Below are positions 21,753-27,274 of a stretch of 64,000 nt of DNA, piece by piece (the stretch's first letter is position 1; each line of letters begins with the position of its first letter). The stretch is from assembly GCF_053078305.1 (NCBI RefSeq), contig NZ_CP166879.1, one strand, 5' to 3'. The translations under genes were made by a program, and so were the position numbers. The notes beneath the pieces were generated by a model that was not told where the DNA came from, ran no database searches, and saw only the letters and a list, made by a program, of their open reading frames with translations.

Positions 21753-21782
21753 GGTTAACTCCTTCTAAAGCCTGAGCTCTAG

Positions 21783-22473: not shown

Positions 22474-23823
22474 TTACCAGCTTACCTTCGCCTCAAATCC
22501 ACCTTGTTCCGCATTCCCAAACTCAACATTCATGCCATGCAGCTTGGCGATTCGCTGGACAATCGATAGCCCAAGTCCACTGCCGGTAGCGGTTTGTCCG
22601 GGTGGGCGATAGAAGCGTTCGCCAATTCGCGCTAGTGCCTCTGGCGTCACACCGGGGCCGTTATCCCTCACGATGAAATTATCGGCATTCAGCGTGACGT
22701 CTACCACGCTGCCCTGTGGACTGTAGCGCACGGCGTTATCCAGCAAATTTCGCACCAACAAACTTAGCAATAGCGGTTGCCCGGTGCGTTTGATGCTGTG
22801 GGCATTGAGTGTCAGTCGCACGTCAATTTTCGCCTGCTGCGCCGTGTGGTAAATATCCATCACCGACGATTGCAGGAGATCTTCAAGCGGGATCTCCGCG
22901 ACGTCCTGAAGGTTATCCAGTGAGTCCAGCCGCGATAGCGTGAGCAGTTGATCAACCAGACGAGTAGCGCGATCGATCCCGTAATGTAATTGAAGCAGTG
23001 CTTTTTTCCGCGCCTGCGGATCATCGTCAGAGAGCTGCGCAACTTCGGTTTGCACTTTCAGCGCCGTTAACGGGCTACGAAGTTCGTGAGCTGCGTCGGA
23101 GGTAAAGCGTCGTTCACGAACCATCATCGCATGTGTGCGGGCGAACAGTTGATTTAGCGACTCAACCAGTGGTCGCACTTCGCTGGGTACGCCAGTCGCG
23201 TTTAGTGGTTTTTCCGAGTCAGGGTCACGCATACGTAGTGCCAGCGCCAGTTTGTTCAGCGGCGCGAGTTCACGACCCAGTAGTACCATCATGATGATTA
23301 ACATAATCGGCAGTGCGACCAACCACGGGATCAATTGCCCGGCAACAATCGCCAGCGCCATGTCTTCACGGTATTCCCATTCCTGACCAACAACGATGCG
23401 ATATTTGCCATCAGGTGAGGTCATCCAGACAAAACGCCATTGATCTTTATCGCCCACCAGTTGCCCGTCAGCAAAACCTTCCCGTTGATAGCTATAGGGA
23501 ATATCTTCTCCGTTATCGCCATCGTTAAGGACCATTCTGCCGTCGTGGGTAAAGATGGCAAAGGTCAGCGCATCGTCATCAACATGACCGTGTTTTAATT
23601 TATTTGGCGTCTGTGCCATGCGATCCGCCGCGTTGATTTCGTTGAGATCGAGCGTACTTAACCGCTTGGCAAACAGCATCAGTTGGGTGTCGAACAACTC
23701 ATCGACGTTATCCGTTGTTTGTTTCCAGGCGACAAAGCTGGAAAGCAGCCAGGTCACCGAGGCCAGAATTAAAAAGATTAGCGTCAGCCTGACGCGCAGA
23801 CTAAGACGTTGGGTAAATTTCAT
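22474..23823 (-). CDS. qseC: Two-component sensor histidine kinase QseC
   Basis: 449 aa; two TM segments, H-box [12 protein letters not shown] and ATP-binding G-boxes; overlaps the qseB stop. Confidence 0.9.
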
Positions 23824-24479
23824 TTCTCACCTAATGTGTAGCCAATACCATGCACGGTACGAATAAAATCACTACCGAGTTTGCGTCGCAGATGATGCAC
23901 ATGCACTTCAACGGCATTACTGGTGACATCTTCGTCCCAGGTATACAGTTTCTCTTCAATCAGTTTGCGCGGCAGTACCCGACCAGCGTTACGCATCAGT
24001 AATTCCAGCAGGGCAAATTCTTTTGGTTTCAGCGTTAAGGGTTCGCCAGCCAGCGTGGCGATACGTTTGCCGGGGTCGAGCATGACGTTCCCGTGGCGCA
24101 GTTCGTTGCTGGCCTGGCCGTTGGTTCGGCGCATCAGTGCTTCCAGCCTGGCGGCGACTTCTATCAACGCAAAAGGTTTACACAGATAATCGTCAGCTCC
24201 CAGACGCAGCCCCTCTACACGTTCCGCCAGCGCATCGCGCGCGGTCAGGATCAGTACCGGCTCACGCTGACCTTTTTCTCGCCATTCGCGCAAAATATCG
24301 CGACCATCCATGCCTGGTAAGGTTAAATCCAGGATCACCGCATCATAAGGCGCGCTATAAAGCGCCTCTTTTCCCTGACGACCTTGTGTAAACCAGTCGA
24401 CGCTAAAACCCATTTTACTAAGGCCCGTTTTGATGCCGTCGCCAATCAGCATGTCATCTTCTATCAGTAAAATTCGCAT
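23820..24479 (-). CDS. qseB: Two-component response regulator QseB (OmpR family)
   Basis: 219 aa; receiver motifs ([18 protein letters not shown]) and winged-helix C-terminus. Confidence 0.9.
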
Positions 24480-24630
24480 TTTTTCATCCCTGCGATAACC
24501 GTATTTGCTGCCAGTAAACCGTGTTGTAACGCGCTCTGTACAGCATTAAATTTTATTTTTTTCCCTTAAGAAGTTGTTAAGGACTATCTTGTTAAATGCT
24601 CGGAAACAGACATTAAAGGGAGTAACAAAC

Positions 24631-25023
24631 ATGAAAAAATTCGCAGCAGTAATCGCAGTAATGGCCCTGTGCAGTGCACCGGTGATGGCAGCAGAGCAGG
24701 GCGGTTTTTCTGGCCCATCGGCAACGCAAAGTCAGGCTGGAGGATTCCAGGGGCCGAACGGCAGCGTAACGACTGTAGAAAGCGCAAAATCCCTGCGTGA
24801 CGACACCTGGGTAACCCTGCGCGGCAATATCGTTGAACGCATCTCTGACGATCTCTACGTGTTCAAAGATGCCAGCGGTACTATCAATGTTGATATCGAT
24901 CACAAACGCTGGAACGGCGTGACGGTGACGCCGAAAGATACGGTTGAGATTCAGGGTGAAGTCGATAAAGACTGGAATTCTGTTGAAATTGACGTCAAAC
25001 AGATCCGCAAAGTAAATCCGTAA
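24631..25023 (+). CDS. ygiW: Periplasmic BOF/OB-fold stress protein YgiW (VisP)
   Basis: ORF track 24574..25023; ATG 24631 with SD aaaggga gives signal peptide MKKFAAVIAVMALCSAPVMA, 130 aa. Confidence 0.85.
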   Translation: MKKFAAVIAVMALCSAPVMAAEQGGFSGPSATQSQAGGFQGPNGSVTTVESAKSLRDDTWVTLRGNIVERISDDLYVFKDASGTINVDIDHKRWNGVTVTPKDTVEIQGEVDKDWNSVEIDVKQIRKVNP

Positions 25024-25075: not shown

Positions 25076-25558
25076 ATGACAAACCTGACACTGGATGTAA
25101 ACATTATCGATTTCCCATCAATCCCTGTGGCGATGTTGCCGCACCGCTATAGCCCTGAGTTGCTCAACTACAGCGTGGCGAAATTTATCATGTGGCGTAA
25201 AGAGACGGGGCTTTCTCCTGTTAACCAAAGCCAGACTTTTGGCGTCGCCTGGGACGACCCTGCCACCACCGCACCGGAAGCGTTTCGCTTTGATATCTGC
25301 GGCAGCGTTAGCGAACCGATTCCCGATAATCGTTATGGTGTGAGCAATGGTGAACTTACCGGTGGACGTTATGCCGTGGCCCGCCACGTTGGCGAGCTGG
25401 ACGATATTTCACACACGATATGGGGCATTATTCGCCACTGGCTGCCTGCAAGCGGCGAGAAAATGCGTAAAGCACCGATTCTGTTTCACTACACCAATCT
25501 TGCCGAAGGGGTGACGGAGCAGCGACTGGAAACGGATGTTTATGTGCCGTTAGCGTGA
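25076..25558 (+). CDS. ygiV: GyrI-like small-molecule-binding domain protein YgiV
   Basis: 160 aa; recognised. Confidence 0.85.
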   Translation: MTNLTLDVNIIDFPSIPVAMLPHRYSPELLNYSVAKFIMWRKETGLSPVNQSQTFGVAWDDPATTAPEAFRFDICGSVSEPIPDNRYGVSNGELTGGRYAVARHVGELDDISHTIWGIIRHWLPASGEKMRKAPILFHYTNLAEGVTEQRLETDVYVPLA

Positions 25559-25666
25559 TGGGGAATCTTTACCGGAGTGTGAGCCAAATCACTCGCGATA
25601 AGTTTGAGCGAACAATGCCACAGGCGTATTGTTGTTGGGCTTATAATTTCTCCGGTAAGGAATACC

Positions 25667-27274
25667 ATGTATACGCGAAATTTATTATGGCTGGTCAGCC
25701 TGGTAAGTGCGGCTCCTCTCTACGCTGCTGACGTTCCCACCAACACACCGCTCGCTCCGCAACAAGTCTTTCGTTACAACAATCATAGCGACCCAGGTAC
25801 GCTCGACCCGCAAAAGGTGGAGGAGAATACTGCCGCGCAGATTGTGCTGGATCTGTTTGAAGGTCTGGTATGGATGGACGGTGAAGGCCAGGTGCAGCCC
25901 GCTCAGGCTGAACGCTGGGAGATAATGGACGGCGGCAGGCGCTATATTTTCCATCTGCGTAGCGGTTTGCAGTGGTCCGACGGTCAGCCTCTGACGGCAG
26001 AGGATTTTGTCCTCGGCTGGCAGCGCGCGGTTGACCCGAAAACGGCAAGCCCTTTTGCTGGCTATCTGGCACAGGCGCACATTAACAATGCCGCGGCTAT
26101 TGTTGCGGGTAAAGCAGATGTTACATCGCTGGGTGTCAAAGCGACGGATGATCGAACTCTTGAAGTTACGCTTGAGCAGCCGGTTCCTTGGTTCACGACG
26201 ATGCTCGCCTGGCCGACGCTCTTCCCGGTTCCTCATCATGTCATCGCTAAACATGGCGATAGCTGGAGTAAGCCAGAGAACATGGTTTACAACGGTGCCT
26301 TTGTGCTTGATCAGTGGGTAGTTAACGAAAAGATTACTGCACGCAAAAATCCAAAGTACCGCGATGCGCAACATACAGTATTGCAACAGGTTGAGTATCT
26401 GGCGCTGGATAATTCGGTCACCGGCTATAACCGCTATCGCGCGGGAGAGGTCGATCTCACCTGGGTTCCGGCGCAGCAAATTCCCGCCATTGAAAAATCA
26501 CTGCCTGGCGAGCTACGAATTATTCCGCGTCTGAACAGCGAATATTACAACTTCAACCTTGAGAAACCGCCATTTAACGATGTGCGAGTGCGTCGGGCGC
26601 TATATCTTACGGTTGATCGACAGCTTATTGCGCAAAAGGTACTGGGGTTGAGGACGCCCGCAACCACGCTGACGCCGCCAGAGGTAAAAGGCTTTAGCGC
26701 GACGACGTTCGATGAACTGCAAAAGCCAATGAGTGAGCGCGTCGCGATGGCAAAAGCCTTGCTGAAACAGGCGGGATACGACGCCTCTCATCCGCTACGC
26801 TTTGAGCTGTTCTACAACAAGTACGATCTGCATGAAAAGACCGCGATAGCGTTGTCTTCCGAATGGAAAAAATGGCTGGGTGCACAGGTGACGCTGCGCA
26901 CAATGGAGTGGAAAACCTATCTTGATGCCCGACGAGCCGGTGATTTCATGCTGTCTCGGCAGTCGTGGGATGCGACGTACAATGATGCTTCCAGCTTCCT
27001 GAACACGCTCAAAAGCGATAGTGAAGAAAACGTCGGTCACTGGAAAAATGCGCAGTATGACGCCTTACTAAACCAGGCCACGCAGATCACTGATGCGACA
27101 AAGCGTAATGCGTTGTATCAGCAGGCAGAAGTGATCATCAACCAACAGGCACCGCTGATTCCTATCTACTATCAGCCGTTAATCAAACTGCTTAAACCCT
27201 ACGTTGGCGGTTTTCCGCTGCATAATCCCCAGGATTATGTCTACAGCAAAGAGTTGTATATCAAGGCACATTGA
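25667..27274 (+). CDS. ygiS: Periplasmic solute-binding protein, family 5 (oligopeptide/DppA-like), YgiS
   Basis: ORF track 25604..27274; ATG 25667 gives signal peptide MYTRNLLWLVSLVSAAPLYA and 535 aa. Confidence 0.85.
   Translation: MYTRNLLWLVSLVSAAPLYAADVPTNTPLAPQQVFRYNNHSDPGTLDPQKVEENTAAQIVLDLFEGLVWMDGEGQVQPAQAERWEIMDGGRRYIFHLRSGLQWSDGQPLTAEDFVLGWQRAVDPKTASPFAGYLAQAHINNAAAIVAGKADVTSLGVKATDDRTLEVTLEQPVPWFTTMLAWPTLFPVPHHVIAKHGDSWSKPENMVYNGAFVLDQWVVNEKITARKNPKYRDAQHTVLQQVEYLALDNSVTGYNRYRAGEVDLTWVPAQQIPAIEKSLPGELRIIPRLNSEYYNFNLEKPPFNDVRVRRALYLTVDRQLIAQKVLGLRTPATTLTPPEVKGFSATTFDELQKPMSERVAMAKALLKQAGYDASHPLRFELFYNKYDLHEKTAIALSSEWKKWLGAQVTLRTMEWKTYLDARRAGDFMLSRQSWDATYNDASSFLNTLKSDSEENVGHWKNAQYDALLNQATQITDATKRNALYQQAEVIINQQAPLIPIYYQPLIKLLKPYVGGFPLHNPQDYVYSKELYIKAH

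Follow-up and report, generated by a model that had tools for sequence, protein, structure and literature searches.

The 64-kb stretch of E. coli DNA analysed here (the window; all coordinates refer to it) contains the divergent genes qseB and ygiW, separated by a spacer of 151 bp (24480-24630). Of 5426 complete E. coli genomes, 5421 carry identical DNA that RefSeq annotates as qseB and ygiW, and the RefSeq annotation of K-12 MG1655 gives the same flanking genes. A 57-bp core is shared without any difference by 5368 of 5418 complete genomes of the species, K-12 and O157:H7 among them. In the anchored alignment, AAAGGGAG at the ygiW Shine-Dalgarno sequence is kept across the Enterobacteriaceae spacers. 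A search of the spacer for known RNA elements returned only chance-level snoRNA matches (E-values 0.15-0.33). The features of the locus are collected in Table 1.

Table 1. Coding sequences and regulatory elements, observed or predicted, of the qseB-ygiW region
Feature	Position	Strand	Remarks
qseB CDS	23820-24479	minus	219-aa response regulator
Proximal qseB promoter (probable)	24513-24542	minus	-35-like TGTACA (24537-24542), 18-nt spacer, -10-like TTTACT (24518..24513)
AT-rich stretch, candidate UP-like element	24543-24564	plus	T-run 24556-24562; A/T run moderately conserved
Candidate -10 of a box-dependent qseB promoter (speculative)	24550-24555	minus	TAAAAT, 9 nt from the box
QseB/PmrA box (pmra-box type)	24565-24581	plus	CTTAAG-AAGTT-GTTAAG, 17 bp
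Half-site 1	24565-24570	plus	CTTAAG, self-palindromic; TTAAG invariant in the anchored profile
Half-site 2	24576-24581	plus	GTTAAG; invariant in the anchored profile
Gap between box and hexamer	24582-24591	plus	GACTATCTTG, 10 nt; sequence weakly conserved, length fixed in 70 module loci
Putative -10-like hexamer	24592-24597	plus	TTAAAT; T..A.T in 46/47 loci, also in Pasteurellaceae and Serratia
Predicted ygiW start	24602-24606	plus	~A24604, 7 nt downstream of the hexamer
ygiW Shine-Dalgarno sequence	24616-24622	plus	AAGGGAG, read from the sequence
ygiW CDS	24631-25023	plus	130 aa, BOF/OB-fold periplasmic protein; ATG at 24631

Several arrangements around the spacer were recorded. The start of qseC (22474-23823) and the stop of qseB (23820-24479) overlap by 4 nt, ATGA, at 23820-23823; a 4-nt stop/start overlap is the usual translational-coupling layout of two-component operons. 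A 13-nt inverted repeat (CGCATTTTTTCAT / ATGAAAAAATTCG) surrounds both start codons (24475-24487 and 24631-24643) and yields a second, out-of-frame ATG on the minus strand 8 nt before that of qseB; no ribosome-binding site was evident for it, and the repeat is probably due to chance. Downstream of ygiW, ygiV (25076-25558) and ygiS (25604-27274) are only ~45 bp apart (25559-25603), and the mqsR-mqsA toxin-antitoxin pair, located between these genes in K-12 MG1655, is missing. The contiguous ygiV-ygiS junction was found with at least 80% query coverage in ~3110 of 5424 complete E. coli genomes; as the remaining genomes match the junction in split pieces, mqsR-mqsA is a common presence/absence polymorphism.

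The spacer contains a conserved direct repeat of two hexamers, CTTAAG and GTTAAG, whose starts are 11 bp apart and which are separated by AAGTT (24571-24575). Read on the qseB strand, it becomes CTTAAC-AACTT-CTTAAG, i.e. the published form of the PmrA/QseB box, and its minus-strand segment 24581..24566 (CTTAAcaacttCTTAA) is the sole exact CTTAA-N6-CTTAA in the window. The pattern STTAAS-N5-STTAAS occurs once in the 64 kb and arose in 13 of 20,000 shuffles of the spacer. When the window was scanned with a position weight matrix (PWM) derived from orthologous sites, the box scored 29.9 bits and the next-best site 8.1 bits; no second convincing box was found in the window (21754-21770 reached 6.2 bits), including the vicinity of mdaB-ygiN, which is activated by PreA in Salmonella.

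By definition, a pmra-box consists of two XTTAAY hexamers with a 5-nt spacer and overlaps the -35 of PmrA-activated promoters, which carry AT-rich sequence upstream, adjoining the box (PMC10570014); it is occupied by a PmrA dimer in head-to-tail arrangement, which contacts the sigma-70 holoenzyme (PMC10570014; PMC3973317). The hexamers of the spacer both conform to XTTAAY(K), the 5-nt spacer and the 11-bp period are those of the pmra-box (the spacer length being invariant in the 70 loci with the module described below), and half-site 1 is identical to the Salmonella 'half1' CTTAAG (PMC3973317). The box has been noted in the E. coli qseBC promoter by a review, in which it is identical to the QseB site of A. 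actinomycetemcomitans (PMC5053249). The alignment of QseB with K. pneumoniae PmrA is gap-free (44% identity), and QseB retains the PmrA DNA-contact residues K153, N188, V192, H193, H195, R171 and R198, with T187 replaced by S. From the account in that review and the literature on such boxes, QseB~P and PmrA~P would be expected to bind at 24565-24581. The box is also bracketed, near-symmetrically, by a 9-nt inverted repeat (AGCATTAAA / TTAAATGCT, 24542-24550 and 24592-24600), which is probably incidental because it is kept in few genomes only.

For the analysis of conservation, 80 qseB loci from Enterobacterales and Pasteurellaceae were sampled and ygiW was located in each; the 1.5 kb upstream of qseB was searched for a module composed of the box, a gap and a hexamer (NTTAAN-N5-NTTAAN + 10 nt + T..A.T). 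The full module was present exactly once in 70 of the 80 loci, with 0 matches in 170,826 bp of control sequence. As in the window, ygiW is divergent in 47 Enterobacterales loci: all 12 specified bases of the box were matched in 41 of these and the T..A.T hexamer was in place in 46. Anchored on the box and read toward ygiW, the profile is cCTTAAG-A..t-TGTTAAG, followed by 10 poorly conserved nucleotides and T-N-N-A-N-T. The module always points toward ygiW, or toward qseB where ygiW is absent; it exists as a unique, deeply conserved unit of fixed geometry and orientation.

In the Pasteurellaceae the module faces ygiW-qseBC (in Haemophilus, for example, CTTAAT-CTTTT-CTTAAG-ATTTGTTTGT-TTTAAT), and in Aggregatibacter it occupies roughly -89 to -57 relative to the ygiW ATG. 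Serratia and Rahnella, which have no adjacent ygiW, carry it directly toward qseB, with the hexamer TGTAAT or TATAAT, the perfect TATAAT being that of Rahnella. Since the module still stands before qseB where ygiW is not adjacent, it has stayed with qseBC through the rearrangement. Its position on the qseB strand in these Serratia (L032, L049, L051, L053) and Rahnella (L034, L042) loci is ~1441-1482 (1173-1205 in L053), mostly 20-30 nt before the qseB ATG. Two loci of Haemophilus parahaemolyticus / paraphrohaemolyticus contain two tandem ygiW paralogues upstream of qseB (L069 and L076; 527-564, 612-1420), and there the box module precedes the first ygiW copy only.

The original prediction had singled out a different repeat in the same place, namely two TTGTTAA heptamers upstream of ygiW, proposed as a direct-repeat binding site of the OmpR family for the adjacent QseB. 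Much of this description was accurate: the stretch 24565-24597 reads cttaagaagTTGTTAAggactatcTTGTTAAat, exactly as claimed, and spans -66 to -34 relative to the ygiW ATG; the heptamers are present at 24574-24580 and 24589-24595, 15 bp from start to start; the divergent qseB/ygiW context agrees with the open reading frames as well as with the RefSeq annotation; and the control of ygiW by QseB in Salmonella is borne out by a published 355-fold rise with PreA (QseB) (PMC2653508). A direct-repeat site of the OmpR/PhoB-family type is indeed present in the spacer, in the form of CTTAAG/GTTAAG, but neither the proposed unit and its spacing nor the part assigned to the second copy was supported. The prediction was therefore partly right, as known biology that had been slightly mis-parsed.

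That the heptamers themselves are the half-sites bound by a QseB dimer has next to no credibility in our view, even though both copies are exact, lie in the right spacer and, in the case of copy 1, overlap a true half-site. Dimers of the OmpR/PhoB family use a spacing of 10-11 bp, about one helical turn, and the pmra-box a period of 11 bp, whereas the heptamers, 15 bp apart, are offset by roughly half a turn for a head-to-tail dimer. The pair did not survive the cross-species alignment, being confined to the window and E. albertii among 47 enterobacterial spacers; at the position of copy 2, the sequence in other genera is CCTGTTTAAT, CTTATTAAAT or TTGGTGTAAT, and a TTAA core is not conserved. 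Furthermore, when the 151-bp spacer was shuffled 5000 times with its dinucleotides preserved, 1016 of the shuffles held two non-overlapping exact copies of some 7-mer, directly repeated within 30 bp; because 20% of shuffled spacers hold such a repeat, the TTGTTAA repeat is not beyond chance. The heptamer is not enriched in the 64-kb window either (14 matches against 9.2 expected, 14 being reached by 9 of 100 shuffles), and the pair leaves the invariant CTTAAG at 24565-24570 out of account. TTGTTAA as a functional unit was rejected, with enrichment, shuffles and conservation all against it.

The two copies can be parsed as follows: copy 1 consists of 2 spacer bases and the first 5 bases (GTTAA) of half-site 2, and copy 2 of the last 3 bases of the gap and the first 4 of the hexamer TTAAAT. 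Across the 47 loci, all that is kept of copy 2 is T..A.T, at a constant distance of 10 nt from the box; judged from the alignment, this is the geometry of a -10 element and not that of a half-site. The identity of the two copies is an Escherichia-specific coincidence.

The reading that we favour, and consider likely, is that the PmrA/QseB box at 24565-24581 replaces the -35 element of a QseB~P/PmrA~P-dependent ygiW promoter with a start near 24604. A dimer of QseB~P (in E. coli also of PmrA~P) would bind the two half-sites head to tail; the box would take the -35 place, 10 nt upstream of TTAAAT and with the AT-rich stretch on its upstream side; the bound regulator would bring in sigma-70 RNA polymerase at a promoter that is very weak by itself; and ygiW transcription would begin near 24604, the box being common to the divergent qseB and ygiW. 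With TTAAAT set as -12 to -7, the box spans -39 to -23. The predicted start gives ygiW a 5' UTR of ~27 nt and corresponds to ~3169703 (minus strand) in the K-12 sequence NC_000913.3. A scan of the spacer for canonical sigma-70 promoters and terminators detected none; from this and from the geometry of the box we infer that the ygiW promoter depends on an activator. The -10 assignment, the start site and a class-II-like mechanism are likewise putative.

The second position of the hexamer (-11) is T, G or C, not A, in all loci except two Rahnella. A base other than A at -11 is atypical for a sigma-70 -10 element; speculatively, it could account for a near-silent basal state together with very large induction. 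In published work, deletion of qseC raises ygiW by as much as 300-fold in K. pneumoniae (PMC9019566), and in UPEC UTI89 no gene is up-regulated more by a qseC deletion than ygiW, according to the mention of Hadjifrangiskou 2011 in bioRxiv 10.1101/2020.07.28.225441. The QseBC-PygiW pair of C. rodentium serves as a gut biosensor (PMC12405535).

The TTAA core shared by the hexamer region and the box in E. coli also allows GTTAAA (24591-24596) to be read as a third, low-affinity QseB/PmrA half-site that covers the ygiW -10 and limits ygiW at high regulator levels, and repression of some targets, flhDC for instance, by unphosphorylated or excess QseB has been reported (PMC5053249). We regard this as very improbable: GTTAAA is 15 bp from half-site 2 (16 bp in hexamer register) and so out of phase, only 10 of the 25 loci outside the Enterobacteriaceae have a TTAA core at this position, and ygiW is most induced with excess QseB~P in qseC deletions, the opposite of self-limitation. 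An in-phase third half-site was rejected, given the 15-16 bp offset and a TTAA core that is not kept.

On the qseB side of the spacer, TGTACA, an 18-nt spacer and TTTACT probably form a constitutive proximal qseB promoter. Its predicted start (~24506) is at -27 from the qseB ATG, in agreement with the published start at -27 (PMC5053249; PMC2653508), and the motifs CTGTACA and GGTTTACTG/CGTATAA are kept across enterobacterial spacers, CGTATAA being the form in Erwinia, Pantoea and Pectobacterium. The conserved 8-bp palindrome CTGTACAG includes the -35-like TGTACA of this element (24513-24542) and could itself be a binding site. A distal, QseB-regulated qseB start has been placed at -77/-78 (~24556/7), with the repeat overlapping its -10 (PMC5053249); for an activator site, a place over the distal qseB -10 is unusual.

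Between the box and the proximal promoter, Enterobacteriaceae have an A-run and then a GA...T/TAAAAT hexamer 9 nt from the box. The box is quasi-palindromic, in that CTTAAG is unchanged by reverse complementation and GTTAAG becomes CTTAAC when the opposite strand is read. One could thus imagine a single box that acts as the -35 surrogate of two back-to-back promoters, that of ygiW (10-nt gap, TTAAAT) and that of qseB (9-nt gap, TAAAAT). If this were true, the regulator dimer could bind in either orientation, and polymerase occupancy would be mutually exclusive, so that output would be split between the stress protein and the regulator operon. We hold such a bidirectional box to be unlikely: the.A...T hexamer at the position of 24550-24555 is found in 13 of 22 Enterobacteriaceae loci against 1 of 25 loci of other Enterobacterales, the candidate TAAAAT conflicts with the published distal start at -77/-78, and the A-run could equally be an AT-rich upstream element of the ygiW promoter.

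The box might instead serve only qseBC autoregulation and PmrA input, with ygiW transcribed from another promoter or controlled indirectly. The review cited above assigns the box to the qseBC promoter and, in its account of Guckes 2013, mentions the suggestion that it is the PmrA site of that promoter (PMC5053249). In Salmonella, moreover, the ygiW start was mapped by primer extension at -161, inside preA (PMC2653508), which conflicts with a start near 24604; the same study (Merighi 2009) locates the start of preA within ygiW, which disagrees with the EHEC mapping that it cites. Against a role restricted to qseBC stand the hexamer at its fixed 10 nt on the ygiW side in all but one of the 47 divergent loci, the qseB side, which has no comparable element outside the Enterobacteriaceae, and the half-site ends, which are closer to the XTTAAK consensus on the ygiW strand than on the qseB strand. 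In addition, the Pasteurellaceae module, in the same orientation to ygiW, coincides with an experimentally defined promoter. We consider a qseBC-only box improbable, and the fixed, ygiW-facing module argues that the E. coli box belongs first of all to the ygiW promoter and only secondarily, if at all, to qseBC.

As the box, its likeness to the PmrA site and to the QseB site of A. actinomycetemcomitans, and the control of ygiW by QseB have all been published, the finding is already known. It is ordinary and largely known E. coli promoter biology, which carries little weight beyond annotation; the sole increment is the description of a module with fixed geometry, facing ygiW, across ~70 species. 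The module gives a precise prediction of the start site (~24604) and a clean design for PygiW-based biosensors.

Among known systems, the pmra-box promoters (pbgP/arnB, ugd and pmrCAB of Salmonella, E. coli and Klebsiella) share with the putative ygiW promoter the pair of XTTAAY hexamers, the 5-nt spacer and the AT-rich upstream sequence, and by prediction also the -35 placement. Their regulator is PmrA/BasR, whereas here it would primarily be QseB, which keeps the base-contact residues of PmrA; the gap between box and hexamer is 10 nt here, compared with roughly 8 implied for pbgP; and, unlike in the pmra-box promoters, the box is common to two divergent genes. The Pasteurellaceae also differ from the pmra-box systems in that they are reported to be without pmrAB and yet have the box.

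The Pho box (e.g. that of pstS) offers a second parallel: a direct repeat with an 11-bp period for an OmpR/PhoB-family regulator, it substitutes for the -35 at a distance of ~10 bp from the -10 downstream, as is predicted for the box here. It extends from -41 to -25, the pmra-box being shifted ~4 bp downstream from there (PMC10570014); for the box at ygiW, -39 to -23 is predicted. The half-site of the Pho box is not TTAA-based, and its regulator and signal differ from those of the QseB box.

A third parallel is the ygiW-qseBC promoter of the Pasteurellaceae (Aggregatibacter, Haemophilus, Rodentibacter), which has the same box, the 10-nt gap, a TTTAAT-type hexamer and the same orientation to ygiW. 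The CTTAA-N6-CTTAA that flanks the -35 of this promoter in A. actinomycetemcomitans is a binding site of QseB (PMC5053249), and deletion or point mutation of the site abolishes ygiW-qseBC induction (PMC4660874; PMC5053249). The region -138 to -94 is dispensable (PMC4660874) and the main start is at -53 (PMC5053249); the Aggregatibacter module lies downstream of the dispensable region and is consistent with a start at -53. One difference is the strand of qseBC, opposite to that of ygiW in E. coli, so that the module would drive ygiW(-ygiV) and not ygiW-qseBC; another is the first base of half-site 2, G in E. coli and C in the Pasteurellaceae. Taken at the level of sequence, the comparison argues that the E. 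coli ygiW promoter is homologous to the dissected ygiW-qseBC promoter of the Pasteurellaceae.
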